NCBI GenBank assembly: GCA_041500865.1
Contig: JBGQMY010000002.1
Location: 1,982-65,981, forward strand
Length of the DNA stretch: 64,000 nt
Reading direction: 5' to 3'
DNA from: Candidatus Micrarchaeia archaeon
GTDB taxonomy: Archaea > Micrarchaeota > Micrarchaeia > Anstonellales > J096
Shown: in pieces, positions 16,567-62,840 of the stretch
Numbering within the stretch: the first letter of the stretch is position 1
Layout of the letters: every line of letters begins with the position of its first letter
Notes under the pieces: generated by a model
Told to the model about the DNA's origin: nothing
Database searches by the model: none
The model's input: only the letters and a program-made list of their open reading frames with translations
Program-made: the position numbers and the translations under genes

Positions 16567-16690
16567 GTAGGGATGGCGGAGCCCGGTCAAACGTGCCAGA
16601 CTCAAGGCGGAAAAAGACAAGGCGTAAATAAAGACACGTGAGACATCTGGTGCCCTAGCGGCTACGTGGGTTCAAATCCCACTCCCTACA
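16567..16690 (+). tRNA. tRNA-Leu(CAA), class II, with a 38-nt intron at the canonical 37/38 position (16607..16644).
   Basis: Acceptor GTAGGGA/TCCCTAC. Anticodon stem CCAGA/TCTGG is restored after removing the intron. Loop CTCAAG with CAA at 16603-16605. Long variable arm. T-arm GTGGG-TTCAAAT-CCCAC. Discriminator A. TTTTTTAACC box about 22 nt upstream. CCA is not encoded. Confidence 0.75.
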
Positions 16691-16896
16691 CAATCCTTTT
16701 TCTTCAGAGAAGAAAAAGCCTTGGGAAAAAGAAGCTACTTTTGTCTTTTAGAAAAAGAAAGCTCTTGCGGAAAGAAAACTGTATTTGGTGTCTGTGGACA
16801 CAAGTTCCTCCCTATCCCCTGATTTTTGGGCTCTATTGAGCCAATAGTTGTTTTTTGCTAAAGCCTTTTCCAAAGAACAAATCGTCGTTTTTTGCT

Positions 16897-16919
16897 GGAG
16901 CTTTTTAAGAAAAAGCTCC
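16897..16919. terminator. Perfect hairpin GGAGCTTTTT-AAG-AAAAAGCTCC, preceded by a T6 tract.
   Basis: 10-bp stem and 3-nt loop lying between tRNA-Leu and the 3' end of the convergent 1,500-aa gene. A near-identical copy is at 62257-62279. Confidence 0.45.
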
Positions 16920-16970
16920 GCGGAAAGAAAATTGTTTTGGCGCCGACTGACGCCATAAACGGTCTGGCGA

Positions 16971-19900
16971 TTAGCCCTTTGGCTTTTTCGGCTCTCTTGC
17001 GGCCACCCGTTTGTTGTAATCATCTATGACTTTTTGCTTGGTTTCGCGCAATGCCGCCTTTCTGGCTTCTTCATCAGCACTTTTCTGCATTTGTGATGCC
17101 GTTTCAGGCGCCTGTCCCAACGCCTGCTGTTCGGATTGCTTTGATGGCGGCTTTTCTGGGCCGCCTTCTTTGAAGACGACCCCGGTCTCTTTCTCTTGAG
17201 GCCGCTTTTCAGCGGGCGGCGGCTCTGCGGGAGGCGTTGGCCGCCCGCCAGGCCCGGATGGGGGCAGTTCTCCATAAAGCATCGGCGCCGGCCTCCCCCT
17301 CCCCCCAAAATATGTGTCATACGTATCAAGCGCGCCCGTGGTGACCTTGCCAATGAAATTATGATAATCCTCCAATGCCGCATAATCTGCCTTGGTGCCA
17401 TTCTTATCCTTAATCCCATCGTCAGATAATTCCTTGGAATATTCCTCTTTCGCACCAATTGCGAAATAATTGCGCAGGCAATCCTTATCATAGTCTTTGC
17501 TGATGAACGCCCTATGGAAAGTCTCATCCGAAGCTCCGGTCATGATGTCTGCAGCCGGGCTTGAATTTGCGATGTTCTCCAGCAGTCCGCTAAAATCAAA
17601 AAAAGACGCCGAAGTGAGATTTCTCCTGTTTCTTGTCTCATAAATGCGGTTTTTCATATCATCTTCAGTTACCTTGATAAGGTTCTTCTTTTCATCCTCA
17701 TAAAGATCAGAGACTACGAAGGAAAGCGACGAAAGCGCCAACGCCCCGGAAGGCGCGCCGCTGACTCCCCCGCCGCCTGCCGGCTTCGGGAACTGCCCCT
17801 GCTGCTCCAGCGCGCTCTTCATTATACTGGATTCATCCGCAGAAAGCTTGTCGAGATTGAACTGCTTCAGGATTTTATTTTCCCTGTCGTCCGGGATGGC
17901 AGTGCCATTCTTGTCGACCAGGTCAAACTTCTTTTGGTCAGGACTAAAGACAAGGAAGACATTTTCCCTGCCCTCATCCAGCTGGAACTTCTCCAACTTC
18001 TCATAAAGCTCCTTATGGGATTTCAGGTTATCCGTAGACGCCTTGGAAGTTAGCATGCCTTCCATTGAATCAAAAAGCTGCGCGACGACACCGGCTCTTG
18101 ATTCGACTCTTGATTCTGCCCCCCCGACCCGGGCGGACATGGCATCCCTAACATCCTGATATGGAATTACATCATTGGAACTGAAATAAGGCAGCACTTT
18201 TTCCTTTATGCTGTTCTTGGATGTCTCGTTGAATGCAGCATATATCTTCGTGAAACTCTCTGATGCATCTTTCATATTAAGCTCTGCCTTCACATCATTC
18301 CCTGTTATGCGCTCCCCGGAAGAATTGTTGATCTTAGTCCCTCCCTCATCTATGCCATTGAATACGAGGTCGGTGCCTCTGAGGCTATCCTTAATCGCGC
18401 CTACGTTTACATTTCTAAATTTGTCCAGTTCTGTGATAAGCTGGGATCTGTCATTTTCACCCATAGACTTGGTTGCGTCCTCAAGGGAAACTGCCTTGCC
18501 AGTTGCCTTGTCTCTCACCAAGAAATTGCCTTCAGAATCCGCTCCTGAGAATGAATAACCTGCCACGGCAGTGCCGAATATTGTATTTATATTTTTAAAG
18601 GTATCTGTTCCCAATGCTGAGGACGCTTTGGAGAAATCCGCCCATGAGTCCTCGTTCATCCTAGCCTTTGCCTGGTCCATGGTTAGCTTCTCTTTGCTTA
18701 CTTTGTCAACTATGACAATATCGCCATTCCTCCCATTGAAACCTTCCAGCGCCATGCCGTTCCTGTCCAATACATCGGCAAGCTTTCCCATAGGGACGAT
18801 TTGGGCTGCGGCAGCTCCTGCTTCAAGGTCTTTTTGATGCGCTATGCCGAGCGCTTTTTCAATTATGCCGGATGATGCCTGGATTGCCTCAGTCCTCTTC
18901 AGCGCCAAGTTCTCTGCTGTAAAGCTGCTCTCAGGCTTCGCGCCATTTGCCATGTCTGTTAGGGTTATCATAGAATAGGCATTGTTCTCAATGCCGTATT
19001 CCGATATTACCTTGTCTTTATTTTCACCGCTGATTTCCTTGCCATTCTTGGTTATTTTTATTTTATCGGATATTTCCATTCCGCTGGCGCCGGGAACCGC
19101 CGTTATGGTGTAGCCGTCATTTACCATGCCCAAAAGGCCGTTGACAACCTGCAGCTTTGCGCTGTTCGCGCTAACGTCTGTCCTTAGTTCCCTCTCCATT
19201 TTCAGCTGCTCAACCATATATGTTGCATTGGCCTGGTTGACATATTCAGGATGATCCGGGAACATTGCTTTCAGCACATTCTGCGGGGCATTGGCGTCTG
19301 TCCCAATCGCATTGAAATCCAACAAAAGCTTGTCGGCTCTGTCTTCCTCGCCGCTCAAGCGCAGCGACAGTGCTATCGCTGCCACTTTGTTTCCTATGGA
19401 ATTCTGGGCTATCTGGCTTATCTTAACTTGGAATTCTCTTTCCGGCTGCAGGATATTGCCCTCAAGATAATGCACCGGCAAATGCGATTCCCTCATCAGC
19501 TCCATCTGGTCATTCAGCATGGTGCCGTAGGCTATCTTCATGCCTATGAAATCCGAAAGCTGGTCCTTAAGTTTCTCGTCCTTAATGCCGCTTAGCCTGT
19601 TGTCCTTGCCGCTTTGGAGGTCTTTCATCTCTGAAAGCGTGAGGGAATCCTTGCTGAGCGCGGCAAAAAGGGCCTTGGCGGTGCCGGAGAGGCCCTCGTT
19701 CTGCTCTATCCTGGATTTCAAGGATGATATGTCATCCCAAAGCTTCGTCATCCCTTGCTTGTTTTCAGCTACTTTCTTGTCTGTCGCAGGGAAGCATTTC
19801 AGGACAAAGCCCGGCATCACGGAATCCCTTTCCTTGATTAGCTTCTCGTTCTCCTTTTCGAGCTTTTTTATGTCCTTGTTTGACGGATTGTTTTCCCTAA

Positions 19901-21470
19901 GCCTGGCAATCACGCCTTCCTTTTCCTTTATTTGGGCTTCCAAAACAAAATATTTGGCTATCGCTGCATCATAGTTCTTGTTGAAATACTCCAGGCTGAA
20001 ACCGGGCCTGTTTTTCAGATTTGATAAAAGTTTTTTCTTGATGTTATCCTTTATCGTCTTGTCCATGGCTGCCTTATCCTGCCTATTTATCTCCTTTTTG
20101 ATTTCTTCTTTGCTTATTGATTTGACGTCCATAGCATTGATTCCGAATGTCTTTAAGACCAGCGATAATGAGGCGCCGATTGCGCCCAGCGAAATGCCGC
20201 CAAGGCCCTTGAGGATGCTTAAGCCCGCCCCTGATTTAGCCCAGCCCGCTTTCATCTCCTGCCCAAACTTTTTGAAGTCAGTGACCTGCACAGTTACCGG
20301 ATTTCCCTTCTTGTCTATTTTCTGGGCGCCGGTTTTGGTAAGCACGGGCACCTTCACCTGGGACTTTTGTACTGCCGCCTCTATTCCCAGCATCTTGCCT
20401 CCTTGTTCTGCTATTTTCTTGCCGGTAACCCAGCCTGTGGCACTGCCTAATGCATTTGCAACTTTTACAAAGCCTATGGCAAATTTCTGAGAGCCAGTCG
20501 GCTTTCCGCCCTTGGCTTTTTCTGCCTCGCCCTTGACCGCGGCCTTCCTGATGCCGCCCTTGTCGCCAGCCAGCCCCTCATTCACACTTTTGGCCGCGCC
20601 GTATACTGACGCCGTCTTGCTGACCACGCTTCCCAGCACGCTCTCGTGCTGGCTCATCGCAGCCCCGACAGACGACTGTATCGCCTGCGTATTCGGCTTT
20701 ATGTAGTTTCTCTGCGCCCTGTCCATGCTGAACCAGAAGAACGGGTTAACGCCCATGTAGAACATGCTGGCTATCAACAAGCCTACTAAAATGGAAATCG
20801 GCAGGCATATGCTCAATTGGTCCGTTGAAAGCACCCTTGTGCCAGAAGCGCGGGTAAGGACCATTGACGACGACAGGAATAGGTTGGCTGGGTCCCAATT
20901 GCCAGTCCCGGTGAGATTGAACACCTTTGCGGTCTGTCCCCAGTTTCCCGATACAGGATTGCCCGCTGCGTCCTTGCATGCATCAATGCCCGTATATGAG
21001 GTCATGCCTATGCCGTTAGGGGGCGGAGCTGGAGGTCTGGGATAGGACGGCTTGTAGCCGATGTTGCCGTTGTCGTCAAAAACCACGAGGCAGTCGTCTA
21101 TGGCGCACGTCAGCGACGCGTTGGAATAGCAGAAGACCGCTACAAACGTCGTTTTGTTCATCATCGCCTTTGAGGCGCTGAACGTGGCAGTTCCGCTCCC
21201 GTCCGTTATCGTCCTGCACAGGTACTCTTTCCTGAATCCCGTGGTGTTGAACGGCTGGATGAATATTACCGCGTCCTTTACAGGGACGTCATGGCCGTTG
21301 ATTGTGGCAAAAAGCGAAACATTGTAATTTGTGGAATTGTCGGGATTGGTCCCAACCAGCTTTATGGATATGCTTGAGACCTCGGCCTTGTCGTAATAGT
21401 CCAAGGGGACGCAGGCGCTGAAAACCATTCCGAAGACAAGCAGCAGCGGGAGAATGTGCCTCATGCCCAT
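16971..21470 (-). CDS. About 1,500-aa membrane protein with an N-terminal signal and Cys-containing ectodomain, one TM helix, a long Lys/Glu-rich coiled-coil region and a Pro-rich C-terminus.
   Basis: MGMRHILPLLLVFGMVFSAC signal peptide, TM segment ICLPISILVGLLIASMFYMGV, heptad-like K/E-rich sequence, C-terminal PPSGPGGRPTPPAEPPPAEKRP. The track start at 21545 overlaps a TTTAAAAACA box at 21491-21500. The ATG at 21470 lies 21-30 nt after it. Confidence 0.55.
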   Translation of the reverse strand: MGMRHILPLLLVFGMVFSACVPLDYYDKAEVSSISIKLVGTNPDNSTNYNVSLFATINGHDVPVKDAVIFIQPFNTTGFRKEYLCRTITDGSGTATFSASKAMMNKTTFVAVFCYSNASLTCAIDDCLVVFDDNGNIGYKPSYPRPPAPPPNGIGMTSYTGIDACKDAAGNPVSGNWGQTAKVFNLTGTGNWDPANLFLSSSMVLTRASGTRVLSTDQLSICLPISILVGLLIASMFYMGVNPFFWFSMDRAQRNYIKPNTQAIQSSVGAAMSQHESVLGSVVSKTASVYGAAKSVNEGLAGDKGGIRKAAVKGEAEKAKGGKPTGSQKFAIGFVKVANALGSATGWVTGKKIAEQGGKMLGIEAAVQKSQVKVPVLTKTGAQKIDKKGNPVTVQVTDFKKFGQEMKAGWAKSGAGLSILKGLGGISLGAIGASLSLVLKTFGINAMDVKSISKEEIKKEINRQDKAAMDKTIKDNIKKKLLSNLKNRPGFSLEYFNKNYDAAIAKYFVLEAQIKEKEGVIARLRENNPSNKDIKKLEKENEKLIKERDSVMPGFVLKCFPATDKKVAENKQGMTKLWDDISSLKSRIEQNEGLSGTAKALFAALSKDSLTLSEMKDLQSGKDNRLSGIKDEKLKDQLSDFIGMKIAYGTMLNDQMELMRESHLPVHYLEGNILQPEREFQVKISQIAQNSIGNKVAAIALSLRLSGEEDRADKLLLDFNAIGTDANAPQNVLKAMFPDHPEYVNQANATYMVEQLKMERELRTDVSANSAKLQVVNGLLGMVNDGYTITAVPGASGMEISDKIKITKNGKEISGENKDKVISEYGIENNAYSMITLTDMANGAKPESSFTAENLALKRTEAIQASSGIIEKALGIAHQKDLEAGAAAAQIVPMGKLADVLDRNGMALEGFNGRNGDIVIVDKVSKEKLTMDQAKARMNEDSWADFSKASSALGTDTFKNINTIFGTAVAGYSFSGADSEGNFLVRDKATGKAVSLEDATKSMGENDRSQLITELDKFRNVNVGAIKDSLRGTDLVFNGIDEGGTKINNSSGERITGNDVKAELNMKDASESFTKIYAAFNETSKNSIKEKVLPYFSSNDVIPYQDVRDAMSARVGGAESRVESRAGVVAQLFDSMEGMLTSKASTDNLKSHKELYEKLEKFQLDEGRENVFLVFSPDQKKFDLVDKNGTAIPDDRENKILKQFNLDKLSADESSIMKSALEQQGQFPKPAGGGGVSGAPSGALALSSLSFVVSDLYEDEKKNLIKVTEDDMKNRIYETRNRRNLTSASFFDFSGLLENIANSSPAADIMTGASDETFHRAFISKDYDKDCLRNYFAIGAKEEYSKELSDDGIKDKNGTKADYAALEDYHNFIGKVTTGALDTYDTYFGGRGRPAPMLYGELPPSGPGGRPTPPAEPPPAEKRPQEKETGVVFKEGGPEKPPSKQSEQQALGQAPETASQMQKSADEEARKAALRETKQKVIDDYNKRVAAREPKKPKG

Positions 21471-21629
21471 GGTTCGCTTTTGCCTGGCCTTGTTTTTAAA
21501 CATAGCGCCTAAGGAAACCGAGGTTCCCTTGAAGCATTTTTCCAAAAGGCTTCAGCGAAAAACGTTGGCCCAACCCCCCCTTCTTACTAAGCTGTTGCAT
21601 CTGGGGTATTTTTGCCAAACCACAAGATT

Positions 21630-22636: not shown

Positions 22637-22790
22637 TCAACCCTTGAATTTGTACTGCCTGCCGCTGCCGCCCCCTTCCCTCAGGAAGAAATAGTATATG
22701 GCGACTATTATGGCTGCTATCGCCACGATGGCCAATAGCGCCGCGGCCAGCACGCCGACCCAGTCAAGCGGCTTTGGCGGCTGCGCCTGT
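22637..22790 (-). other. C-terminal membrane anchor of the giant protein. TM helix plus basic tail, no PGF motif.
   Basis: LDWVGVLAAALLAIVAIAAIIVAIYYFFLREGGGSGRQYKFKG. Confidence 0.65.
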
Positions 22791-25700
22791 GCGCAAAGTC
22801 CCGCGCTCATGTTGCAGCTGCCTGAGCAGCAGTCGCTGTCAATCTTGCATGCCCCGTTGTCTGCGGCGCACGTGATATTGGCCCCTGAGACATTCTGGGT
22901 CACGTTGGTTGGATGGGTCGCGTTTCCTCCCTGCTGAGCCGCTGCCCTGGCCATTGCGCCAATCACGGCAAACGCGTTGTTGCCTGAGACGTTGTTCAGC
23001 ATTATGGAGACATTGAGGCTGCCGTCGCCATTCACGTCAACGGTCCTGTTCTCGCCCACATAAACGGTGATTGTGCCAGTGAGGCTGTCCACCTGGTATG
23101 CCGCATACTCGGCGCCGACGTCAATCAGGGTGACGTTGATGTACCTGGTGGAGCCGTTGCTTACATACGGGATTTGGCTTGTCTGGTTCCTGGACATGCC
23201 GCCCTGGGTGCCGTTCCCGGCAGTCTGGTTCTGCTGGCCTCCTGCTGCCGCGCAGCTGAACGACACTGTCAGCGAGGCGCTGTCGTAGCCGTCCTTGTCC
23301 GCATACACGACGTACGTGCCGCTTGCGAGGTTGCTGAAGGTGTATCCCGAGGTATATGCCGTATGCCTGTCGTCCGAGTTTATGTAGACGGTAACCCCGC
23401 TAAGCGCCGTGCCGCTGCTGGCTACAGTAACCCTCACGTTGGCAGTTCCGTCGCTGTTGCATGACGTGTAGTTGGATATCGCCATTGAAGGCAGCGCCGC
23501 CCCGCCTCCGCCGCCCCCTCCGCCCCCTCCGCCTCCGCCACCGCTTGTCTTTACGGTAACGGTCCTAGACAGCGAGGATGACGAGTAGTTCTCGGTCGCG
23601 TTGTACACCAGCTTCACTGTGTGAGTTCCTGTCGCAGACCAGGACGTGCTGTTGTAGATGTTGCCGTTGCCTGAGCGCGAGAACGCGCTGTCCAGCCATA
23701 TCTCTATGTGGCCGTTGGCCGGCGTTGTGACAGTGCCGTTGAATGTGACTGTGGCGCCGGTGTTGACGGTTATTCCGCCAGCAACCCCATTGACGGTAAG
23801 GCTTATGCTGGGCGCCGCCTTGGCTATTGTTAAATTATTTGAGGCGGATGCGCCTGTGTAGTTCTCAGTCCCGCTTATGTTGCACACAAAGAGGTATGCC
23901 CCTGCCGGCAGGTTGGCTATGCTTTCGGCGTAGCCTAGACCGCTTGCCATGAACGTGCCGTTCCTGTAAATGGATACGTTAAGGCCGGCTTGGCCGCTGC
24001 ATGAAACGTTTATGTTGCTGTTGTTCCATGTCGGCGTCCATCCTGCTGACGAGGAGAACGTGAGCGCAGTTGACACTTGCGCTATTGTCAGCGTGTTTGA
24101 TGCGCTGCCGTTCGTGTAGTTCTCGTTGCCGCTTGTGTTGCACACATATTCGTATGTGCCTGCAGAAAGGTTCTGCGGGTCGCTCGCAAAGCCCATGCCG
24201 CTGTCAACAAGCGTGCCGTTCCTGTAAAGCTCCATGTTCACCTGCGCGGCTCCCGTGCAGTTGACTATAGTTCCGTAAGGCCAGGTTCCGCTCCATGATG
24301 GTGAAGCTGCCAATGCGGCACTCGGGTCTGCCATAAGCACGGTTATGCTCATGTTTGGCATAGAGTCGTTCAGGTTGCTCCACGTGTCATTGGCAGTCCA
24401 CCTGTAAGTATATTCTCCTGCCGCGAGGTGGCCGGTGTCGTACTCGAACTGGCTGCCTGCCTGGCTTGTGAATGGCGATTGGACCAAAGAGCCGCTGAAG
24501 TTGTTCTCAACAAGCACTGTGTCAAGTCCCGTTTCATCCGTCCAGGTTGCGTTCAGCAGGTATGAGAGGTTGGGCCTGTATGTGTCGTTGATGTTTGCGC
24601 TTGGCTCCAATGCGGTATAATTCGGCGCATTTGATTCAGGCGTGAGGTTCATGGCAAAGAACACTGTGTCGTTGGCCGTGTTGCCTGCCGAGTCGTTTGC
24701 AATCACCGTAATGGTGTGGTTGCCGTCGCTTATGCCAAGGAGCGAACTGATGTTGGAGCATCCGGCAAGGCCGATTGCCGCGCCTCCGTCAACCATGTAT
24801 CTGCAGTATGCAAGGTTCGCATCCGATGCAGTGTAGTTCAGGTCGATGTTGGCCGTGGTGTATATGGTTATGTTGTCTGGCGACTGGATTGCGACTATTG
24901 GCGCAGTGGTGTCAACCGTGAAGGTGCGCCCAGAACTGACTGTTGTGCCTGCGCTGTCGTTGGCCCAGGCCGTCATGTTGTATATTCCGTCGTCAAAGTC
25001 AAGGGTAAATGGGGCACCTGGAGGAGTATAGATTACATTGGTTCCGTTGGTGTAGAACCATACCGTATCCAAGTTCGTGTCATTCGCGCTTATGTTTATC
25101 AGTATTGTGCTGGTGTTGTAGTAATAGCTTAGCAAAGGCGACACTATCGTTATGGTCGGGCTTACCGTGTCGACCGTGAAGTTGTCGGTTCCGCTGACTG
25201 CTATGTTGTTTGCTGCGTCAGAGCAGCTGACATTCCAAAGGTGGCTGGTTTCGGTAGCGTTGTATGACAATGACGCGGGCGTGTTGTTATGCGCATTGAC
25301 ACTGCCTGCAGCCGAGCCGTCAACATAGACGACGCATGTCATGTTTTCCGAAATCGCGTCAACCGCGGTGAACGACAGGCTTACCAGCGATGAGGCCGGG
25401 AAGCTGTTGTTCTCCGGAGCCACAAGGGTTATGCCGGGCGCAGTCGTGTCTATCACTATTATCCTGGTCTCTGTTTTATTGAAGTTGCCGGCCAGGTCGG
25501 ACACCGAGGCATTGAGGTAATACACACCGTCGCTAAGGTTGTTGAAAGTGTGCGCTAATACTAAAATGCCGCTGGCGCTTCCGTTAAAGGTGTCATAGAG
25601 GCCAGCGGGAGTGTAAAGCGTAATTATGCCATTCATGGTGTTGGTATCATTCATAATCAGATTCACGTCTATATTAGGTATCGGGGTTCCCGTTGACGAA

Positions 25701-28700
25701 TTGGTCGTAGGCGAGGCAAACCATATCTGCGGGACAGTCCTGTCAACGGTCACGTTCCTGGTCTCTGTGCTGTTGGAGCGGCCGACCATGTCGTACGCCG
25801 TTGCGTTGAAGTAATACGTGCCTTCTGCAAGGCCGCTGAAGTTCGCAAGGAAGCTGCTTGAGTTGGACCATGTCTGGTTCCTGAGCGCACCGCTCGCGTT
25901 GTACAGCCTGACGGTCACGTTCGCGAAGCTTGAATCATTAACACTGACGTTCGCGATTATGCTGTTCGCAAACGAGGACGAGTTCGTTGACGGCGTTGCA
26001 AAGCGTATCGCCGGGTTTGTCGTGTCCACCGTGAAGTTCACGCTGGCTGTCGAGACGTGGCCGACCATGTCGGTTGACCACACCGTAAGGGTGTTGGCTC
26101 CCTCCGTGAAGGTCCTGTTTACAGGAACCATGTAGGTCTCATTGGCCGTCCCGTTGTAGAACCAGGTCGTGTTCAGGTCTGCATCAGTCACGTTTATGCT
26201 CACAAGCACCGTTGAGTTGCTGTATGCCGTGGCTGCCGGGGATATTATCGTTATGCTTGGCGCTATGGCGTCAAGCGTGACGTTCCTTGTCTCGGTCTTG
26301 TTCGTCCTGCCTGCCCTGTCGTAGACTGTTGCGTTGAAGAAGTACGTGCCATCCCCAAGCCCAGTGACGTTAAGGAATGCCGGGCTGGCAGTTGAGGTCT
26401 GGTTCCTTACCAGCGCGCCTGTTGAGTTGTATACCCTTATCGTGACGTTGGCGAGGTTGGTGTCATTCGCGCTTACGTTTATCTCTATAAAGTTGTTCAA
26501 CGAGGCTGTCACGTTAGTGGTTGGCGCAACAAATGATATTTCGGGGTTTATCGTGTCAACGGTGAATGTCCTGTTCGTTGAGTTGATCCTCCCTGCGGAG
26601 TCGTTCACCCAGGCATACATGCCATAGGTGGCATCGCTGAAGTTCCTGGCAAACGGCGTTCCATTGTATGTTTCATTGTCCGTGCCGTTGTAGAACCAGA
26701 CCGTGTCCTTGTTGGCGTCTGTTGCGCTTATGTTCACCAGTATCGTTGCATTGGTGTAATAAGCCAATGACGGCGACATTATCGCTATTGCCGGGTTTAT
26801 CGTGTCAACAGTGAAGTTCCTTGTTTCGCTCACGACCGTGTTGTTCGCGTCGTCCGTGCAGTTGACATACCATGTGCGGAGCGCGTTGCTGAAGTTCCTT
26901 GTCAGGTTGTACTGCGATGCGTTTGAAACCGCTACTGTTGCGTTGAGCGTGCCGTTTATGTAGATTTTGCACGTTATGCTTGTGTCAACATTGTCATCCG
27001 GCGTGAATGAGAGAGTCACATTGGTAGTTGGAGAGAAGCTGCCTGCGGCTGGCGCATTGAGCGTTATGTTTGGCGGCACTGAGTCAACAGTGAAATTGAC
27101 GCTTGCCGTTGATACGTGCCCGACCATGTCGTTCGCCCAAGCCGTGAGCGTGTTTGCTCCCTGCTGGAATGTCCTTGTGACGGGCGTTCCGTTGTAGGTT
27201 TCGTTGTCCGTTCCGTTGTAGAACCAAGTCGTGTTAAGGTCGGCGTCAGTGGCGCTTATGTTGACCCATATCGTCGCATTGGTGTAATACCTTGCCGTCG
27301 GGCTTATTATTGCCAGGGTTGGCGCGACCGTGTTGAGCGTGACGTTCCTTGTCTCGGTCTTGTTGATCCTGCCTGCCCTGTCGTATGCCGTTGCGTTAAA
27401 ATAATAGACGCCGTCGCTGAGGTTGGAGTAGTTTGCGAACACCGTAGCGGACGATGAGCTGAACGTTGAGTTCCTCAGCCCGCCGGTTGAGTTGTATAGC
27501 CTTACCGTGACGTTCGCGAAGTTGCTGTCATTAACTGAGACATTCGCCAAGACATAGTTATTCAGCGAGAATGAGACATTCGTGGTTGGCGCGACAAACG
27601 CTATTGCCGGGTTTACCGTGTCGACTGTGAAGTTCCTTGTCTCGGTCTTGTTGAGGTTCCCTGCGCTGTCAAACGCCGTTGCGTTGATGTAATAGATGCC
27701 TTCGGCAAGCGACGTCTCGTTGGCAAACAGGTTTGTCAGGGTCCCTGACGTGTTGAAATACAGCCCAGTGGAGTTGTAGAAGAATATCGTTACGTTCCTG
27801 AAGTTTGCGTCGCTGGCCGTGACGTTCACAAGGGCGCTGTCCCTGTTCAGGTATGCGCTAGAGTTTTCCGTAGGCGACTTGAAGATTATTGTCGGCTTTA
27901 TCGTGTCGACCGTGAAGTTCCTGGTTTCGCTGACTGCCGAGTTGTTCGCGTCGTCCGTGCAGTTGACATACCATGTGCGGAGCGCGTTGCTGAAGTTCCT
28001 TGTCAGGTTGTACTGCGACGCGTTTGAAACCGCGGCCGTTGCGTTGAGCGTGCCGTTTATGTAGATTTTGCACGTAATGCTGGTATCCACGTTGTCATCC
28101 GGCGTGAATGAAAGCGTCACGTTTATTGTATTTGAGAATCCTCCTGCAGCAGGCGCATTGAGCGTTATGTTTGGCGGGATTGAGTCTACGCTGAAGTTAA
28201 CGCTGGCTGTCGACAGATGCCCAATCAGGTCGTTTGACCACACAGTAAGCGTGTTTGCCCCTTGCTGGAATGTCCTTGTGACCGGGGTGCCGACAGCATA
28301 AGTCTCGTTGGCCGTGCCGTTGAAGAACCACGTTGAGTTGTCAGAGTCGGTTACGCTTATGTTCACCAGTATGGAGGCGTTGTTGTATAGCTTGCTCGTA
28401 GGCGATATTATGGTTATGCTTGGCGCTGTCGCGTCAATCGTGATGTTCCTTGTCTCTGTTTTGTTTGCCAGCCCTGCCAGGTCATATACGGTTGCGTTGA
28501 AATAGTACAGGCCGTCGCTGAGGTTGGTATAATTTACAAAGACGCTGCCTGGGCTGCTTGAGAACGTTGAGTTTCTCAGCCCGCCGGTCGCGTTGTAGAG
28601 CCTTATCGTGGCGTTGGCGAAGTTCGTGTCGCTGGAGCTAATATTTATTGCAACATAGGCGTTGAGCGAATACGCCGAGGAGTTCGGCGTCGGAGTTGTG

Positions 28701-31700
28701 AATGTTATTGCCGGGTTTATTGTGTCAACAATGAACGTCCTGTTTGTTGAGTTTGTCCTGCCGACTGTGTCGTTGGCCCATGCGGTCATGTTGTACACGC
28801 CGTCCGTGTAGTTAAGCGTTACTGGTCCCGCGTATGTCGTGTTTGCAGTGCCCGTCCCGTTGTAGAACCGCACCGTGTCCAGGTTTGCGTCGCTTGCGCT
28901 TATGTTTATCAGCATGTTGGTCCCGTTTGCGTAATATGCCTGCGAAGGCGACACTATGGATATCGCCGGGTTTGTCGTGTCCACAATCACGTTCCTGACC
29001 CCGGTTGCGTTGGGATTCCCCGCAAGGTCGGAGCAGTTTGCGAAGTAGACGTGGGTGCCGTCGCTGAGGCTGGCCAGCGTGTAGTTGGCCGTCGTGTTTC
29101 CGTCGGAGTTGTGTATCTGCATCGCATATGAGGATGGCAAGGCCGGAATCCTGATGTTGCCGAGGATGTAATTGGCTGACATTCCATAAGTGTTGTCGCC
29201 GTAGCAGGTGGAGTTGCCGTTTGACAACAGATAGCAGGTATGGAAGACGCCTGCTGAAAGCGCAATGGCTTTTCCTCCTGTGTAGTTGGTTGCTTCACCT
29301 GGACCGTTGCCATTGAAGCCGTAGCATGTTGAGTTGCCGTTGCTGAGAAGGTAGCAGGTGTCCAGGTTGCTTGCAGAGACTGCAATGGCGTCGCCACCCG
29401 TGTAGCTGGTTGTTTCGCCATTGCCGCTGTCATAGCCGTAGCATACGGAGTTGCCGCTGCTGAGCACGTAGCATGTGTGGTCCTGGCCTGCAGCAACCGC
29501 GATGGCGTCGCCGCCGGTGTAGTTGGTTGCCTGGCCGGCGCTGCCTACGCATGGCGTGTAACCAAGGCAGTTGGCGTCGCCGTAGCATACGGAGTTGCCG
29601 CTGCTGAGCAGGTAGCAGGTGTCGTAGTCAGTTGCAGAAACTGCGACGGCGTCGCCGCCTGTATAACTGGTCGACTGGTTCGAGCTGTCGTCGCCGTAGC
29701 ATACGGAGTTGCCGTTGCTGAGCACATAGCATGTGTGCTTATATTCCGTTGAGACCGCGATGGCGTTGCCGCCTGTGTAGTTTGTCGACCTGCCGTCGGT
29801 GTTGGAGCCGTAGCATACGGAGTTGCCGTTGCTGAGCACATAGCATGTGTGGTATTCGCCCATGGCAACCGCGATGGCGTTGCCTCCTGTGTAATTTGTT
29901 GCCTCACCGTTGCCATTGAAGCCGTAGCATTTGGAGTTGCCGTTGCTGAGCACATAGCATGTCTGATAAGTGCCTACCGAAATCGGCGCGTTTGAGGACG
30001 CCCTTCTCTGCGCGTCCATTGTGAGCGTGCATGACTGCAGGTTCTCGCTGGAGCTGACGTTTATGGCGATGCTGCCGTTGAGATATGCTGAGGTGTTGGG
30101 CGTCGGGCTCACGAAAGCCAATGCTGGCGCCACGTTGTCTATGCTGATGTTATAGGTGCTGGAGTAGAACCTGCCGTATTCCATCAGCTCCCCGCTTCCG
30201 TCCGCAGCATATGCCACGTCTATTGTAAAGAACGAATACGTGCCGTTGTCTCCGGTCGCATAGACCTTCCAGGTGGCGTTGCACACCTTGCCCTGAGTCA
30301 TGTTGCTGTAGCAGCTGAGGTTGGACGGGTTTGACGAAGTCGTGTAGAACGGCCTTGCCCCAACGGTCGTTGGAACGACGCCCTTGTCAAGCGTTGAGCC
30401 AAGTGCATTGACCCTCGGATATGTGTAGTTGAGCGTTCCTGCGGTGTCAACAATGGGCTTTCCGCCTGTCTTCAGCATCGAATCCACCTCAACCGGAGCC
30501 GGCATCCTGCCGTAGCTCTGGACAAAGAACTGGTTTATGAGCGCGATGGCGCCCGAAACGTGCGGGGTCGCCATTGACGTGCCCTGCTTCGGCGTATGAG
30601 TGCCTGCGAAATCTGTTGCGATTATGCCCACGCCAGGAGCAAGCACGTCAAGCGTCCTGTCCCTGTTGGTAAAGCCCGCTATTGCGTCCGAGTCGTCTGT
30701 TGCGCCCACTGAAATAGCAGTGGAGATGCATGCCGGCGAGCCTATTCCGGGCACGTCAGAAAATGGGTCGGAAGCCCCGGATCCGTGGTGTTCGTTGCCT
30801 GATGCGATGACAACCGAGATGTTGCTATTGCGGGCATTGTATAGATAAGGCGTAAAGGCGTCATCATTGTCGCAAACCTTGCCGTCGCAGCTGCCATAAT
30901 TGCAATCGCTGCCGCCTATGCTTATTGATATGACGCTTATGTTATATAGGCTGGCGTTGTTTATGCACCATTCTATGCCTGCTTCGATATCGGCTTCGGG
31001 GCAGACGTCGCCGGTGCTGTCGCAGACCTTTACCATCGCGATTTTTGCGCCAGGCGCAACGCCCCTGTAAACAGAGTCGATTGAGCCGACAATGCCGGAC
31101 ACGTGCGAGCCGTGGCCGTTGTCGTCAATGAAGTTAGTGTCGTTGTTGTAGAAGTCGTATCCCCCTACAATCTTGCTGCAGTTGTGGCTCGTTATTATGT
31201 CTGCAAGCGTGCAGCTCCCGAAGTCCGGATGCGCGTAGTTTATGCCTGTGTCAAGTATGCACACTGTCTGGCCTGTGCCGTTTATGTTCCGGCCGTTTAT
31301 TGACATGTTCCATAGCTCAGTCGCATTTATGAGCGGAACTGAAACGTCAAGCATGGTATGGAAAGTCCTTGCGATGCGGACAGATGCGACGTTCGGGTTG
31401 GCCATGAGGCTCTTTATGCCCGCAAGCGTCGCAGTCCCCGAGAAGCTGTTCACTGTGGAATACCTGTACTTAACCTTGAAGTCGCCCGAAGAAAGCGTTG
31501 AAATCACGGCAGACTGCACCGAATATACGTTTTCCCTTGTCTTGAGGCTTGCAGCCGGCTCCTTGAGCGTCACGATTACTTCAACCGGGCCGTTCTTTGC
31601 CGCGGAAAGGATGTCCTTGGGCGTCTCGTTTGCGCCCGCCATTATCGGGTCAAGGACCGCGGCAACAGCCCCGCACGGGCCGCCGACGCAGGTCACGGAT

Positions 31701-34700
31701 GCGCTGATGTTGAACGTGGCGTTGTCTTTCATGCTGCTCCTTGTCACGTTGGTTATGTTCGCAACCAATATGCCCTGTTGCTGGACATAGAGATTATACG
31801 TCCCGGCATCACCGTAAAGCTCATCGACCTCAACGTAGTACGTGGCGGTTTCCGGTGCCGTGAACCAGATTTCGCTGTTCCTGTTGATTGCGAATATTAT
31901 GTCATCGCTATATCCCAGTATTGTGCCGGTTGAGTTGTAAAGCTGCATCTGCGTGTCCGTGATTGAGATGGCCGTAAGGTTCTTGGTCCATATGAAATAT
32001 GTATATCCATTTATCGCGTTGAATTTCACGAAGTCTATATCCGTCGGGGTGTTGAACGTGTGCGTCTGCGGCACGCCGGTCGTATTTATCCAATTCGCGC
32101 TGGCGTTGTCGTTGTCCGGCTCGTATGCGTCCGGGCTCAATGGCGCTATGGTGAAGGTTGTCCTTGATGTCGCGTTGTTGCCAGGTTCCGGATATGCGAA
32201 GTCGTATGCAGTCACATTTAACCTGTAGTCGCCCTGGGTGAGCGTCGTTGTGTTGCGCAGGCACCTCAACGTTTCGCCGTTCGGGGCCAATGCGGTGCAG
32301 TTCGCGGTGTTGCTGGTGACGCTCCCGTTTGTCGCATTGTAAACGTATGTCGTTGCGTTTATTGATATCAATATCAGGCTGGGCGCAGTCCCTGTGCCGT
32401 TGACAGTGATGTTCATTATGAAAGACGTTATGTTGGTTGAATAGCCGTCTGCTGGCTTTACGAGGGTTATCACAGGGCTGACGTTCTCCGTGACATTGTA
32501 GCCTGAGAATCCGGAGACGTTGAACGTCAGCGTCCCCGCAACCGCGTAAGTGGCGCCAGAAAGCGAGCAGTTTGTGCCGAGTGTGCGGCATCCTGCATAT
32601 CCGGCAAGGGAGCATATGCCGTTGGAGGATGAATTTATTGAGCATGAGGTTCCGTTGACGTAGCAGTACCCGGTATGCAACTGGCACGTGCCAGTGATTG
32701 GATATGTGGAGCATTTTTGGGTTGTGGCATTGACCGAGCACGTTCCGCCGTTCAGGGTGCTGGAGTTGTAGGTTGTCCAGCTTGCCACATGGACAGAGGA
32801 CTGCTTTGGCGAATCGTCGGCGTATATGCCTGGCTGGGAAACGAACGGCAGGTTGTAGAGCCTCACTGTCGCGTTCGTGTCCAGCTCCACGAAATAGTCC
32901 GTGTCTATGAAAATCCTTGACTGCTCGAACGTGTCGGGCGCCCCTATGTCCACGGTTATCGCAGAGCCAAGGTTGCTGAGCTTGTCCGCGCCAGACCACG
33001 TGGAAATGTTGACGGAGGTGAGGTTTATCAGCGCTGCGCTTGAAAAGTTCGTGCTTGGGCTCAGGCCTCCGCTTGCGCAGGACTCGTTCATCTGTATGTC
33101 TATGATGAAGTTGACCCTGCTGAAGTCAAACACCTTGGTGAAGTTGGTCGTGAGGTTGCCGAAGCGGGTGCACGGGTTGCCAGTCATGTTTGGCACGCCT
33201 ATGTCCTGGAGTATGATTTCAACGGGAGTCATGTTCCATTGGCTGAATTCATCCGTGGCGATTACCCATACCATCCTCTGATTGACGGGGCCGGGCTGTG
33301 CGTACTGGCCTATGCTGCAAGAGCCGTTCCACAGGCCCGTGGCATGGTTGAAAGTCAAATTCAGGATGCCGCCGCAGGCGCTCGCATTGACGTCCGAGAA
33401 GTTAGCGACGACGGATGTGATGTTGCCCTCGCCGGTCGCGTTAACAGAAAGGTTGATTATGGCGTCGTATGGCGAGAAAAAGTTGTCAGGGTTGAGGATT
33501 TGGACGTCCGAGACCGGAAGCTGGCTGCTGAGGTTTGCCAAGACGCCCCATGCCATGGCATGGGCGTTGACATGGTCATCGGCCTCAAAGCCAATCCGGT
33601 ATTCGCCGTCCGGGTCTGCGCGCACAAGCGGGATGTTGGATGACGAATTTACCGGATAGATGGTTATGTTGGAGTTGTTGAACGGGACTTTCTGCGCTGT
33701 GCTCAGGTTGAGGTATATCCTCTGCGGCATGAATTTGGTCTGGTTGTTGGCATTTATGATGCTGGTGGTGCTGAGATTGCAGCCGTCCATGCCGCACCAT
33801 TGCTCGCTCGCTATGCCCAATAAGGTTGCATTCTGGCCGTTGGACATGGACGTATTGTAGATGAGCCACCAGTTGTAGGGCTTTGTGCAGTTGTTATCCT
33901 CCCCGCAGGAGAAAATGAAAGTGCCGTTGCAGTCCCAGGGCGCGGTGTCGTTGATTTTCAGGCAGCCTGGCACTGATGCAGTGGGGCTGTCGTTGCCAAG
34001 CGCGAGAAAGTAAAAATTGTAATAGGCCGAGACGTTCTCGCCATTGAGCGTGTAGGTCTCCTGGCTCCATGTCGTGTTGTAGGCGCCGCTGGCTGGAAAG
34101 TCCCAGTTGGTCCCCTGTGTCTCGTTGCCGGACTGGCCCCACCCGGTCACTACATAACTGTAGTTGTCCAGCACGAAGGGCGTGACGCTCCACAGATACT
34201 TGTCGGTGATGTTCGCCCTCAGGAACCACGTCCTATGATAATAGAGGGAATAATTAAGGTCCATCTTGGAAACCGAAGGCGGGCTGTTGTCCACCGTGAT
34301 GTTGGGAAGCATGTCATAGCCGTATCCGCCTGGTGAAGACGCATTGAGCACTAGCGAGTAGTTTTCGCACTCGCCGGCACAATTTAACGACGTGTCCCAT
34401 GAGCAGATAGGGGAAGGGTCCGTTTCATTGCTTACGGACGCTGTGCCGTTGCATATCGTTGCGTTGTAAGCGCCGTTCCTGTAGAGCGACAGCGCCCAGC
34501 TGGTCATGTTGGGGTCGTACGCTATTCCCTCGACATCCACAACGCCGCCCACGAACTGCATTATCACGCCGCTTATGTTGTCATAGTTCCCTGTTGGGTT
34601 GGTTATTTTGACATCTGGGTTGCCGCCGTTTTCGGATATGTAGACCGGAACTGTCGCGCTGACCGTGACATTGGCGACCGAACTGCCGTAAGATGCGTTT

Positions 34701-35827: not shown

Positions 35828-35848
35828 GGATGGGCTTTGGCTGCGCGC

Positions 35849-35873
35849 CTTTTTAAACATTAATGACGTTGGG
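35849..35873 (-). promoter_or_regulatory. Promoter of the giant gene. The TTTAAAAAG TATA element (minus sense) is 24-30 nt upstream of the ATG at 35827. The block is conserved with 37342-37363.
   Basis: Plus-strand CTTTTTAAACATTAATGACGTTG is 22/23 identical to the block upstream of the 458-aa gene. Confidence 0.6.
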
Positions 35874-37399: not shown

Positions 37400-37867
37400 T
37401 CATCCGGCAACGCACTCGCTGAAGGATACTATGAATGAGTTGGATGCTTCCTTTCTCATCAGATCATACAGTAATGGCATGGATTCTAGGATATTTCTGA
37501 TTTTGTCGTGCCTTGATTGCGAGGCCATGCTTAATGGGGTCCAGCCGTCATTGTTCTTTGCCTCGATGCTTGCTCCTTTTCCGAGCAGCAAGGCGCAGGT
37601 TTGGGTGTGTCCGTTCCTTGCGGCATGCATGAGCGGAGTCATGCCGCTGCCGCCTTTTGCCTCTATGCTTGCGCCAAGCTTCAGCAGCGTTTCAATGCCT
37701 GTATTGTCGCCGCTCTCTGCGGATTCCAGCAGTTCATTGTTGAGCCGCCTTTGCCCTTCTGCCGATAATGCCGGATTCTTCAATGCCGGCTTTTCGCTGG
37801 GCATGATGTCTGCTTTCAATTTAACTGGTTCTGTTGCCGGATTGTTTTGGAGCGTCTTTTCCTGCAT
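37400..37867 (-). CDS. Ankyrin-repeat protein. Likely start MQEKTLQNNP. C-terminal tail ..FIVSFSECVAG.
   Basis: ANK repeats. The track start at 38020 is upstream. The ATG at 37867 is preceded by TTTGCCGCACAATA (shared with the 5749 paralog) and a TTTTTAATT box. Confidence 0.75.
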   Translation of the reverse strand: MQEKTLQNNPATEPVKLKADIMPSEKPALKNPALSAEGQRRLNNELLESAESGDNTGIETLLKLGASIEAKGGSGMTPLMHAARNGHTQTCALLLGKGASIEAKNNDGWTPLSMASQSRHDKIRNILESMPLLYDLMRKEASNSFIVSFSECVAG

Positions 37868-38090
37868 GTATCTATTGTGCGGCAAAGCAATTAAAAACAG
37901 CGCGCAGCGCCCTAAATGCCTTCTTTTGAACCCAAGGGCCTTTTCTTTCCCCAAGTGCTTTCTTTTTCCAATGCGCATCAGCGCCAAAAGCAGGGGGGCG
38001 GGAGGAGCTTGGAACTGCACAGTTTCGTGGGCCGTCTTTTATGCCAAAGGCAAAACAATGTGGGTATTGCCTGCTGGCCCACGACACTGT

Positions 38091-38106
38091 GGGGGGTGGA
38101 GCCCCC
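38091..38106. terminator. GC-rich hairpin (GGGGG-TGGAG-CCCCC) immediately 3' of tRNA-Thr.
   Basis: Read directly from the sequence. Confidence 0.35.
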
Positions 38107-38115
38107 TTGGTTCAG

Positions 38116-38189
38116 AGCCTCAGGTGGGATTTGAACCCATGACCTCTCGCTTACGAGGCGAGCGCTCTACCAGGCTGAGCTACTGAGGC
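38116..38189 (-). tRNA. tRNA-Thr(CGU), 74 nt, no intron.
   Basis: The reverse complement gives GCCTCAG-TA-GCTC-AGCCTGGTA-GAGC-G-CTCGC-CTCGTAA-GCGAG-AGGTC-ATGGG-TTCAAAT-CCCAC-CTGAGGC-T. Anticodon CGT. One A-C mismatch at 49-65. TTTTTAAAA box about 30 nt upstream, shared with the divergent ZIP gene. Confidence 0.75.
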
Positions 38190-46081: not shown

Positions 46082-46112
46082 TTTTTAAACACTTATTCAC
46101 ACAGTAAGCGCA
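46053..46112 (+). repeat. Copy 1 of a roughly 60-bp direct repeat (3' end of the DUF655 gene plus the TTTTTAAACA promoter plus the ankyrin ATG).
   Basis: GTGACGCAGCCGCCGAAGGAAGCAATCTGATTTTTAAACACTTATTCACACAGTAAGCGCATGG. Confidence 0.8.
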
Positions 46113-46732
46113 TGGTCCAAAAAGAAATGCCAGAAAAGGGGAAACTGGTTTTAGGCGCAAGTAAAAAGCCCGCCGCGAAGGCAGGAAAACCGGCTTACAA
46201 AGCGGATATCCTGCCAAGCGGAAAAATGGCGTTATCCAAGAAAGAGCAGAAACGGTTCGATGACAATCTCCGGAATGCCGTCATATATGAAAACGTTTTT
46301 GGTGTATTGCGGTTCATCAAGTCAGGCGCAGACATGAATGCAGGGGACGACTGTGGCCTGACGGCGCTCATGCTCGCCGCATCCAAAGGAAACGCCCAAA
46401 TCTGCAAACTGCTGGTTAAGAAGGGCGCGGATGTTGACGTGAGGGACAACACAAACCGGACGGCGCTCATGGTTGCCGCACAGCGGAAGCATGCCGACAT
46501 CTGCAGGCTGCTGGTTGAAAATGGCGCTGAGGTGCTGGCAAGGGACTGGCATGAAAGAACTGTGCTGCATTATGCTGCAGCAGGAAGGCTAAGCGGCATA
46601 TGCACGCTGCTGATCAAGAAAGGCGCGGACGTGAATGCAACGGACAGGGATAAGAGGACCGCGCTCGATATCGCCCTAGAATCCGGCCACACGGAAATCG
46701 CCGACCTTCTGCAAAAGAAGATGAAAAAGTGA
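46112..46732 (+). CDS. Ankyrin-repeat protein with Lys-rich leader and no C-terminal FREC tail.
   Basis: ANK repeats. TTTTTAAACA box 28 nt upstream. Confidence 0.8.
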   Translation: MVQKEMPEKGKLVLGASKKPAAKAGKPAYKADILPSGKMALSKKEQKRFDDNLRNAVIYENVFGVLRFIKSGADMNAGDDCGLTALMLAASKGNAQICKLLVKKGADVDVRDNTNRTALMVAAQRKHADICRLLVENGAEVLARDWHERTVLHYAAAGRLSGICTLLIKKGADVNATDRDKRTALDIALESGHTEIADLLQKKMKK

Positions 46733-46812: not shown

Positions 46813-46872
46813 GACGCAGCCGCCGAAGGAAGCAATCTGATTTTTAAACACTTCTTCACACACTAGGCGCAT
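46813..46872 (+). repeat. Copy 2 of the roughly 60-bp direct repeat. It carries a relic of the last 10 codons of the DUF655 gene together with the promoter.
   Basis: TGTGACGCAGCCGCCGAAGGAAGCAATCTGATTTTTAAACACTTCTTCACACACTAGGCGCATGG, about 57/60 identical to 46053-46112. Confidence 0.8.
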
Positions 46873-62830: not shown

Positions 62831-62840
62831 CAGTTATCTG

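Follow-up and report, generated by a model that had tools for sequence, protein, structure and literature searches.

What do the few sizeable intergenic gaps of a very compact archaeal genome contain? We addressed this question in a 64,000-nt stretch of DNA from a Candidatus Micrarchaeia archaeon (assembly GCA_041500865.1, contig JBGQMY010000002.1, positions 1,982 to 65,981 of the forward strand), hereafter the window, in which non-coding DNA is so scarce (3.4 kb in 25 intergenic gaps) that the whole is very compact. The three largest of these gaps, which we termed loci 1, 2 and 3, carry related hairpin-forming sequences, and loci 1 and 2 trail the only two tRNA genes of the window. Here we describe the shared sequence as a hairpin element of approximately 42 nt, termed E, and find that E is a large, structured and apparently undescribed element family of DPANN archaea. 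We further consider it reasonably probable, judging from the arrangement of its copies, that E is mobile but non-autonomous and forms the core of a mini-intron family or of a family of hairpins resembling repetitive extragenic palindromes (REPs), and that its copies in the window lie in oligo-T terminator zones.

Hairpin copies in the largest gaps of the window

Read from 5′ to 3′, E opens with a single unpaired base, followed by the outer stem of 4 bp, a C that faces another C, an inner stem whose apex is small and variable, the returning 3′ strand of the outer stem, a 2-nt linker and the tail GGAAAGAAA. The inner stem has the form CTTTCTT(T)/(A)AAGAAAG, pyrimidine against purine, and on a strand made of purines alone the tail mirrors the 3′ arm exactly; in many copies the tail also pairs with a downstream CTTTCC run to give a second hairpin. 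To identify copies in the window, we used a covariance model (R1) built from 32 copies, all from other genomes, with the window copies left out. The model gave six matches with E values of at most 0.005 (2e-17 to 5e-3), all in loci 1–3 and all in the expected orientation, and because a model derived from other genomes matches them significantly we count these six as members of the family. The only other match near that level (E value 0.012) covers the tail alone inside hisG and was taken as chance. Three copies lie behind the tRNA-Leu gene (16690–16930), one degenerate copy lies behind the tRNA-Thr gene on the minus strand and two lie at 62203–62325; within each locus all copies are on one strand, and a scan of 10 further kb of the same contig past the window revealed no copy. 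Simple counts point the same way: GGAAAGAAA occurs 6 times in the window against 0.86 expected, a number that none of 100 shuffles reached, and the palindrome core GCTTTTTNNNAAAAAGC occurs twice against 0.01 expected.

Every feature of E is present in the copy at 62203–62244 of locus 3 (plus strand; 53.2 bits, E value 2e-17), which reads AGGG-C-CTTTCTTTT-GCG-AAAGAAAG-C-CCCT-GG-GGAAAGAAA and is predicted to form a hairpin with a 1×1 internal loop, and the stem and tail recur with variant arms at 16896–16930 and 16690–16730 in locus 1. Locus 1 begins at the 3′ end of the tRNA-Leu(CAA) gene (16567–16690, plus strand) and ends at the stop codon (16971) of a minus-strand open reading frame (ORF) of 1524 amino acids (aa). 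A preliminary description of this DNA had reported here a non-coding region of 280 nt with three 24-nt units and a perfect hairpin; the gap is exactly 16691–16970, and everything that was quoted from it was found within 1–2 nt. The tRNA gene is of class II with an intron of approximately 41 nt at the canonical position (Rfam tRNA model, 44.1 bits, positions 1–71, with a 41-nt insert in the anticodon loop), and it is overlooked by ARAGORN at default settings because of this intron, which itself is free of E. Outside the window, where loci and contigs carry labels of the form L006, the syntenic tRNA in L006 has an intron of approximately 95 nt at the same place.

The first copy of locus 1 (16690–16730, plus strand; 17.3 bits, E value 5e-4) begins 0–1 nt past the tRNA end and is divergent, with the hairpin CTTTTTCTTC-AGA-GAAGAAAAAG (16696–16718, inverted repeat I3) and the tail GGGAAAAAGAAG; its leader ATCCTTTTTCTTCAGAGA is also found in the relative L011. 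The second copy (16731–16777, plus strand; 23.4 bits, E value 2.7e-6) retains an intact 3′ arm with its tail (GAAAAAGAAAGCTCTTGCGGAAAGAAAA) beside a 5′ arm that has degraded, is 97% identical over 37 nt to copies of the metagenome-assembled genome (MAG) JBGQMB01 (L011, L014) and is followed by a GC hairpin at 16788–16801. Direct reading then identified module D (16803–16842, plus strand), composed of AGTTCC..TCCC..CCCCTGATTTTTGG with a T5 run and the hairpin GGCTC-TATT-GAGCC; the module has a counterpart in locus 2, its hairpin recurs in L006 and a terminator-like match lies at 16829–16842. A degenerate T6 block (GTTTTTTGCTAAAGCCTTTTC, 16850–16870, plus strand, family D1), with 78% identity to 16875–16906 and 90% to 62247–62267, precedes the T6 block CGTTTTTTGC and the third copy with its tail GCGGAAAGAAAA (together 16886–16940, plus strand, inverted repeat I6). 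This third copy is the second-best of the window by R1 (32.4 bits, E value 1.2e-9 at 16896–16930), contains the perfect 10-bp hairpin (16897–16919) and is followed by another GC hairpin (16939–16954); its region is 91% identical over 46 nt to L024 6945–6990, behind a tRNA-Leu of MAG JBGQMB01. The contig is also represented in GCA_041480205.1 (JBGOZM010000002.1, 93.7 kb) and in JGI sample 3300053059, and locus 1 has the same sequence in three assemblies of the contig, with no strain polymorphism there.

These assignments recast the repeats of the preliminary description. The three 24-nt units are present (16720–16743, 16764–16788 and 16918–16940) but are not free-standing, as they correspond to the linker, tail and following T-run of E copies, and the perfect hairpin, whose 10-nt arms (16897–16906 and 16910–16919) are 100% complementary around a 3-nt loop, is the stem of one copy. 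The reported recurrence of 16886–16919 at 62246–62279 was likewise borne out, with 95% identity over the first 21 nt and a stem that differs by a compensatory pair (GGAGC/GCTCC versus GAAGC/GCTTC), as were two further units near 62229 and 62311, where the 18-mer CCCTGGGGAAAGAAAGCG occurs exactly at 62230 and 62311. The description had rightly set aside a CRISPR array, given spacings of 41, 165 and 90 nt, diverging repeats and loci that lie behind tRNAs. It had missed the link to tRNA genes, a third locus (37911–37968, minus strand) and a weaker copy at 21531–21564; the family, with copies in many other DPANN genomes, is far from genome-specific.

In locus 3, the full copy is followed on the plus strand by a T6 block and the palindrome GAAGCTTTTT-CGC-AAAAAGCTTC (62257–62279) and then by module C (62281–62304), an arrangement (62246–62304) that was recognized from sequence repeats, is also present in L004 and L005 and is read here as a putative variant of E with the tail GGGTTCAAAAGAAGG. 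A short, degraded copy with the tail CCCTGGGGAAAGAAAGCG (18.3 bits, E value 2e-4 at 62293–62325) and the hairpin GCTTTGC..GCGCAAGC complete the array (62293–62350, plus strand). Locus 2 (37911–37968, minus strand) contains a remnant with 3′ arm, linker and tail and without a 5′ arm (37941–37968; 14.7 bits, E value 0.005 at 37942–37961) together with module C (TGGGTTCAAAAGAAGGCATTTAGG, 37911–37934); 28 nt of it are 93% identical to 16751–16778 and a 24-mer is identical to 62281–62304 of locus 3. The tRNA that it trails is a tRNA-Thr(CGT) (38115–38189, minus strand) identified by both ARAGORN and Rfam, and between the two, at 38018–38091 in minus-strand reading, lies a 16-nt inverted repeat, CACAGTGTCGTGGGCC/GGCCCACGAAACTGTG, with one mismatch and a loop of approximately 42 nt. 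The weak copy of a T-block and hairpin at 21531–21564 (minus strand), which spans the listed start (21545) of the 1524-aa ORF, is 85% identical over 34 nt to 62246–62279 and scores 7.4 bits with R1, and its membership in the family is uncertain.

A structured and polar element family of DPANN archaea

Scanning one genome per species with AAAGAAAGCNNNTGSGGAAAGAAA revealed 31 loci, approximately 22 of them in DPANN archaea with the complementary arm upstream; 8–9 bacterial matches are devoid of this arm and look like chance. The DPANN genomes with E include Micrarchaeia and other Micrarchaeota, Aenigmatarchaeota and Burarchaeum, besides other archaea, the relatives that share the repeat modules of the window are labelled Candidatus Micrarchaeia, and the hairpin-plus-tail pattern was found on at least 120 metagenome contigs. 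Strict copies number 1–9 per genome: MAG JBGQMB01, from the same study as the window, has nine in eight loci, and only one was found on a complete chromosome of 833 kb and likewise on a contig of 918 kb. Among IMG/VR viral contigs there were no matches to the 24-mer or to the E pattern, and a viral origin was rejected on this ground. Rfam 15 returned no family near its gathering score except tRNAs (best others below 19 bits, E values above 0.4), and together with the lack of C/D boxes on direct reading this removed the known RNA families from consideration; a literature search found no description of the motif.

Evidence that the hairpin matters as a structure came from the outer stem; the inner-stem core and the tail were fixed by the search pattern that yielded the sample (134 distinct instances, 116 distinct sequences). 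Outer-stem pairs are Watson–Crick in 75–96% of the 116 distinct copies, with 3–4 pair types at each position, which none of 1000 permutations reached, and the 5′ mismatch base is a C in 111 of them, facing an invariant C. As MAFFT misplaced gaps on the raw copies, we aligned 32 copies of equal length without gaps (alignment A3), in which 99.5% of cells are paired and both-side changes occur in 48 cells, compared with 12.9 in shuffles (none of 500 reached the observed value); sliding the register by one to three columns lowered the pairing to 48–65%, and the position before the stem (column 1) is not conserved. Because the outer pairs covary beyond permutations and shuffles and slid registers lose pairing, we conclude from the alignments that the hairpin is selected as a structure, in RNA or in single-stranded DNA; this is the covariance analysis that the preliminary description had proposed. 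Degraded copies differ by insertions and deletions and are detected only by the covariance model, and copies degenerate by substitutions alone are almost absent within the 8-kb loci. Pairing of the tail with the 5′ arm as a switch was dismissed, being feasible only in the minority of copies with GGG after the tail (L018, L071, L072, L112). A promoter role was discarded as well: the apex lies approximately 27 nt before an ATG in approximately 9 copies, but apex loops are variable and often contain GC, and no transcription factor B recognition element is present.

We then asked where E lies relative to genes, assigning position classes by ARAGORN, simple rules and inspection. Among the matches listed, 53 of the 134 distinct copies fall within inserts of tRNA or rRNA genes; tRNA trailers account for 16, another 21 touch or overlap a stop codon, and the remaining 44 have other positions. 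Trailer copies supported by ARAGORN are in sense orientation in 12 cases, 10 of which begin 0–3 nt past the tRNA end, and the sole antisense trailer copy lies between converging tRNAs; at the 3′ ends of coding sequences, 25 copies are in sense and 4 in antisense only. Intragenic copies, which in tRNAs fall in the D-, anticodon and T-loops, always occupy the 5′ edge of the insert, after the GG region of the D-loop, after position 37 or after TTCRA in the T-loop. Removal of an 88-nt insert from L033 restores a canonical tRNA-Thr(TGT), and removal of 48 nt from L022 restores a tRNA-Ala(CGC). Only such explicit splices were kept for defining insert borders, as brute-force deletion with ARAGORN was insensitive or, with the intron option, far too permissive. 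One class II tRNA in L029 (QMVF01000111) carries two E-type inserts, in the D-loop and the T-loop, and escapes ARAGORN even after both were cut out by hand. The window copies are all extragenic, 3′ of tRNA bodies, and so do not show the insertion within a tRNA that is seen in L033 and L022.

Ribosomal RNA genes also harbour the element, as Rfam places sense copies inside 23S (L072, L094, L106) and 16S (L073) genes. The mini-inserts, delimited by Rfam and 23S comparison, lie at L072 1022–1069 (48 nt, E plus 10 nt) and approximately 1955–2035 (approximately 80 nt, starting with an E variant), L106 approximately 813–951 in reverse complement (approximately 139 nt, with E at the 5′ end and an inverted E-like sequence at the 3′ end), L073 909–942 and L094 5618–5652. 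An archaeal RNase P RNA gene directly follows the 23S gene in L106. At the 5′ border of the 23S insert in L072, the sequence can be drawn as a helix–bulge–helix. We regard splicing of the intragenic copies as likely because of host biology; energy folding gave no convincing bulge-helix-bulge (BHB) motif.

Probable mobility, possible termination and competing explanations

Movement of E is likely in view of inserts that are identical between tRNAs, copies in tandem, direct repeats on their flanks and an inversion at a syntenic locus. In one Guaymas sample, three different tRNAs have the same T-loop insert of approximately 55 nt (L029, L031 and L068, the first two from one assembly), and in tRNA-Thr(TGT) the element lies in the D-loop, at 37/38 or in the leader, varying by genome. 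Two or three complete units form tandem arrays directly after stop codons in metagenome contigs, with a 55-nt period in L113 (3557–3703) and L110 (1363–1454) and, for two copies in L146, a 65-nt period. Abutting direct repeats of 8–27 nt flank 5–6 of 119 copies (L004 17149–17272, L049, L084, L146, L109) and duplicate the first bases of a tRNA or of a gene, the latter with its ATG. The paired repeats of L118 and L104 have diverged yet encode the same N-terminal peptide (MASLR.. and MAQ..). Apart from this tail of long repeats, the distribution of direct repeats around the 119 copies resembles that of controls. Direct repeats at intron borders have elsewhere been read as insertion footprints (PMC11782384). 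At the locus syntenic to locus 1, L006 (HisG 77% identical to that of the window) keeps the order AglB, HisG, tRNA-Leu and large ORF, and its tRNA-Leu trailer contains similar modules in another arrangement, with one E hairpin unit inverted.

Oligo-T is the established terminator signal of archaeal RNA polymerase. Copies of E inside RNA genes seldom contain runs of five or more T residues (6% in the arm, 4% in the next 45 nt), whereas copies behind tRNAs and coding sequences have them in 19% (arm) and 25–38% (downstream), a split (Mann–Whitney p = 0.004 and 8e-5) that fits oligo-T as a terminator signal in these organisms. In the window, a T5 run directly follows tRNA-Leu (16696–16700), further T5–T6 runs lie at 16823, 16854, 16888, 16902, 62248 and 62262, and equivalents are found on the opposite strand because the stems are palindromes of T-tracts and A-tracts. 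It is therefore plausible that the window copies act as terminators, and loci 1 and 3, with T5–T6 runs on both strands, would be two-way stop zones. The preliminary description had offered structured non-coding RNAs or terminators as one possibility, of which the terminator-like character stands; independent RNA genes are not supported, as the copies abut 3′ ends in sense and have no promoters of their own. Its other proposal, a small repetitive intergenic element or MITE (miniature inverted-repeat transposable element), is right as to a repetitive intergenic element with hairpins but does not extend to a classical MITE, for which terminal inverted repeats beyond the hairpin, a regular target duplication and a transposase are lacking.

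E almost always lies in sense just past the 3′ boundary of a functional segment, be it the last base of a tRNA, a stop codon or, in relatives, the edge of a 5′ exon. In the mobile-element reading that we favour, it would insert with fixed polarity and would persist only where it is harmless: behind genes by virtue of position, and inside stable RNAs through presumed removal by the archaeal splicing endonuclease. The window copies are of the extragenic kind; locus 1 would stop transcription in both directions where tRNA-Leu and the 1524-aa gene converge, and locus 3, in the gap at 62.2 kb, would halt transcription from the gene at 62465–62830 ahead of the next promoter. A bolder and distinctly more tentative version is that E might be the mobile core of an unrecognized class of archaeal mini-introns that moves between tRNAs, rRNAs and gene ends across DPANN archaea by a polar mechanism. 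This mechanism might operate at the RNA level, the excised hairpin RNA being re-ligated at cleaved or processed 3′ ends and then copied into DNA, or might depend on an enzyme of its own, acting in trans and recognizing the C·C hairpin together with the purine tail.

Several observations weigh against mobility. Across approximately 120 loci, the recurrent neighbours of E are ribosomal proteins, RpoD and tRNA synthetases, with no recurring transposase, reverse transcriptase or homing endonuclease, and a link to the TnpB element of the window was rejected since its ends are unrelated to E. Flanking duplications are absent from most copies, five pre-tRNAs folded by minimum energy gave no clear BHB motif at the insert borders, and the strict search pattern biases the sample towards intact copies. 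In the window itself, locus 2 lies approximately 150 nt behind tRNA-Thr and is thus not adjacent to its tRNA, and locus 3 is antisense to both neighbouring genes. Both the invariance of the inner stem and tail across deep lineages and the strong sense bias would also fit a host RNA signal.

Such a signal is the main rival, although we regard it as rather unlikely. The hairpin and purine tail would be a cis-acting, non-selfish RNA element, recognized and bound by a protein conserved in DPANN archaea, which would mark or protect the 3′ ends of RNAs or aid the processing of pre-tRNA and pre-rRNA, and the element would spread because it is useful. It would explain why the inner stem, the C·C mismatch and the tail are invariant while only the outer stem drifts, why copies exactly abut tRNA 3′ ends, 5′ exon ends and stop codons in sense, why E is enriched beside highly expressed genes (ribosomal proteins, RpoD, tRNAs, rRNA) and why no mobility gene lies nearby. 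What it does not accommodate is the patchy copy number, with single strict copies on the 833-kb chromosome and the 918-kb contig and none in the 10 kb past the window, or the insertion footprints, namely different positions in the same tRNA species among genomes, tandem arrays, flanking duplications, and a differing module set with one inverted unit at the syntenic locus. Thus the signal accounts for invariance and polarity and leaves patchiness and footprints to the mobile-element reading. A structure at the level of DNA, in which the inverted repeat and the purine mirror repeat (AAAGAAAG..GAAAGAAA) form a cruciform or triplex as a landing site for proteins or a pause site for recombination or replication, would make sense of the exact mirror symmetry between tail and 3′ arm on a pure purine strand and of the tandem duplications beside E, which are what fragile palindromes produce. 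We nonetheless consider it very improbable, as a triplex needs no covariation of the outer stem, and the sense bias and the presence in transcribed RNA genes point to RNA or to polar insertion.

Three further explanations start from the window. That each copy is a small independent non-coding RNA gene with its own promoter appears very unlikely: the stable hairpins do outperform shuffled sequences in folding (z −2.4 and −1.9), and a TATA-like box, GGTTAAAAACC, precedes the canonical copy at 62203 by approximately 25 nt, but this box at 62179 is equally well placed for a small minus-strand ORF, copies that abut upstream genes leave a promoter no space, other RNA genes enclose many of the copies and no Rfam family matches. 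We see even less of a case for scars or attachment sites of integrative elements that target tRNAs, with 16.7–37.9 kb as a possible island bounded by inverted copies. Two loci do lie at tRNA 3′ ends in inverted orientation, with 31-nt arms (16748–16778 and 37941–37971) that are 90% complementary, and locus 3 lies in an island of AbiE and restriction–modification genes; yet the repeat is not a duplicated 3′ segment of a tRNA, the genes checked include no integrase, the GC content is flat over 16.7–37.9 kb, and E occurs at stop codons and within tRNA and rRNA genes in hundreds of unrelated contexts. The least credible explanation is that the copies are ordinary archaeal two-way terminators, alike only by their A/T-tract composition. 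The T5–T6 runs on both strands of loci 1 and 3, the intergenic position and the terminator-like match at 16829–16842 agree with it, but as a complete account it is already contradicted by blocks of 24–37 nt that are 92–100% identical between loci and genomes, by R1 matches with E values down to 2e-17, by the covariation across 116 copies, by motif counts far above shuffles and by copies inside tRNA and rRNA genes; it survives only as a local function of the copies. A coding function was rejected, as the shared blocks are in different reading frames in loci 2 and 3 and the small ORF at 62001–62141 matches only itself.

The gain of archaeal tRNA and rRNA introns has been debated for decades on mostly circumstantial evidence, chiefly similar introns within Thermoproteales. 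E is found in all relevant states, that is, in tRNA loops, in 16S and 23S genes, exactly at the 3′ ends of tRNAs, at stop codons, as tandem arrays and with occasional flanking duplications, which makes the question of intron gain testable. Were the mini-intron version correct, the extragenic copies of the window and the intragenic copies elsewhere would be two fates of one insertion process, and E would provide a sequence-defined handle on the origin of archaeal introns and split tRNA genes. The element also explains why tRNA finders overlook many tRNAs of DPANN archaea; if it were masked by means of a covariance model, tRNAs and rRNAs would be better annotated in their genomes, and three unexplained gaps of the window become interpretable features.

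Neighbouring genes and comparison with known systems

The genes of the window include AglB, FtsZ, RIO1, eRF1, many ankyrin genes and giant ORFs, and their promoters are archaeal-looking, with TTTTTAAACA-type boxes approximately 25 nt before start codons. Of the giant ORFs, one of 4407 aa (22637–35860, minus strand) has many internal repeats with periods of approximately 114–120 nt and 528–1101 nt, and the 1524-aa ORF (16971–21545, minus strand) has no Pfam match. At least five ankyrin-repeat genes give rise to a DNA repeat family with a 99-nt period (148–365, 1846–2354, 37400–37867, 46310–46626, 52240–53192), and the genes at 46112 and 46871 have a common 22-nt promoter block (46082–46103 and 46841–46862). 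The exact 17-mer GCAGACCCCGTTGCCAA occurs twice on the plus strand (1528–1544 and 62187–62203). When the minus strand is read, each copy precedes by approximately 10 nt a TATA-like box that itself lies approximately 25 nt before a minus-strand start codon; the genes behind the two copies are 734–1492 and the small ORF 62001–62150, and the 17-mer may be a shared regulator site. A tnpB gene (43491–44819, minus strand), encoding OrfB_IS605 and a Cas12f1-like TNB domain, lies in a low-GC patch (0.415) with flanks to approximately 45071; no TnpA was seen, and its upstream hairpin is TTCCTGGGTT-TTAA-CCCGGGAA. Locus 3 is located in a defence-type island (60646–63734 and, past the right end of the window, L158 1–10000) with two AbiEii genes, one beside an AbiEi-like gene and the other beside an unannotated ORF of 121 aa, followed by a TaqI-like restriction enzyme, two DNA methylases and a HATPase_c_3 protein.

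Compared with known systems, the window copies resemble archaeal oligo-T terminators in having T5–T6 runs on both strands in 3′ gaps, runs that the intron copies avoid; such terminators, however, can do without a conserved 42-nt sequence, a covarying stem or a purine tail, and E also occupies sites where termination would harm. With MITEs and palindromic elements derived from IS200/IS605, E shares its small size, the absence of coding sequence, polar insertion and an imperfect hairpin that a single-strand transposase could read. It differs from them in that the hairpin supplies its only terminal inverted repeats and that a fixed target duplication and a conserved target tetranucleotide are both missing, and the only IS605-family gene of the window (TnpB, 43491–44819) has ends unlike E.

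A likeness in form is offered by REPs and the bacterial interspersed mosaic elements (BIMEs) built from them, which are mobilized by REP-associated tyrosine transposases (RAYTs). Like E, they are short imperfect palindromes (20–40 nt) with a conserved mismatch, lie outside and behind genes, form mosaic arrays with linker modules, are non-autonomous and are thought to act as terminators or RNA stabilizers. In contrast to them, E is without a conserved GTAG head, approximately 120 loci showed no RAYT-like gene, its orientation is mostly single rather than alternating, and strict copies number 1–9 rather than hundreds per genome. E is also common to deep lineages rather than specific to a species, and is found inside tRNA and rRNA genes.

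The positions of the intragenic copies relate E to transposed tRNA introns with BHB motifs. In Thermoproteales, similar introns at many positions have been interpreted as intron transposition, as recounted in PMC4090602 for Fujishima et al. 2010, and the tRNAs of Micrarchaeum (ARMAN-2), which has a broad-specificity splicing endonuclease, are heavily disrupted at such positions (PMC3239211). E shares with these introns its sites (D-loop, 37/38 and T-loop at approximately 58–60), a host lineage with a broad-specificity splicing endonuclease and near-identical inserts in different tRNAs or positions of one genome (L029, L031, L068). Unlike them, it has a core that is conserved as hairpin plus tail across DPANN genomes labelled as different phyla and always lies at the 5′ edge of the insert, and it extends beyond tRNA introns to trailers, stop codons, tandem arrays and the 16S and 23S genes.

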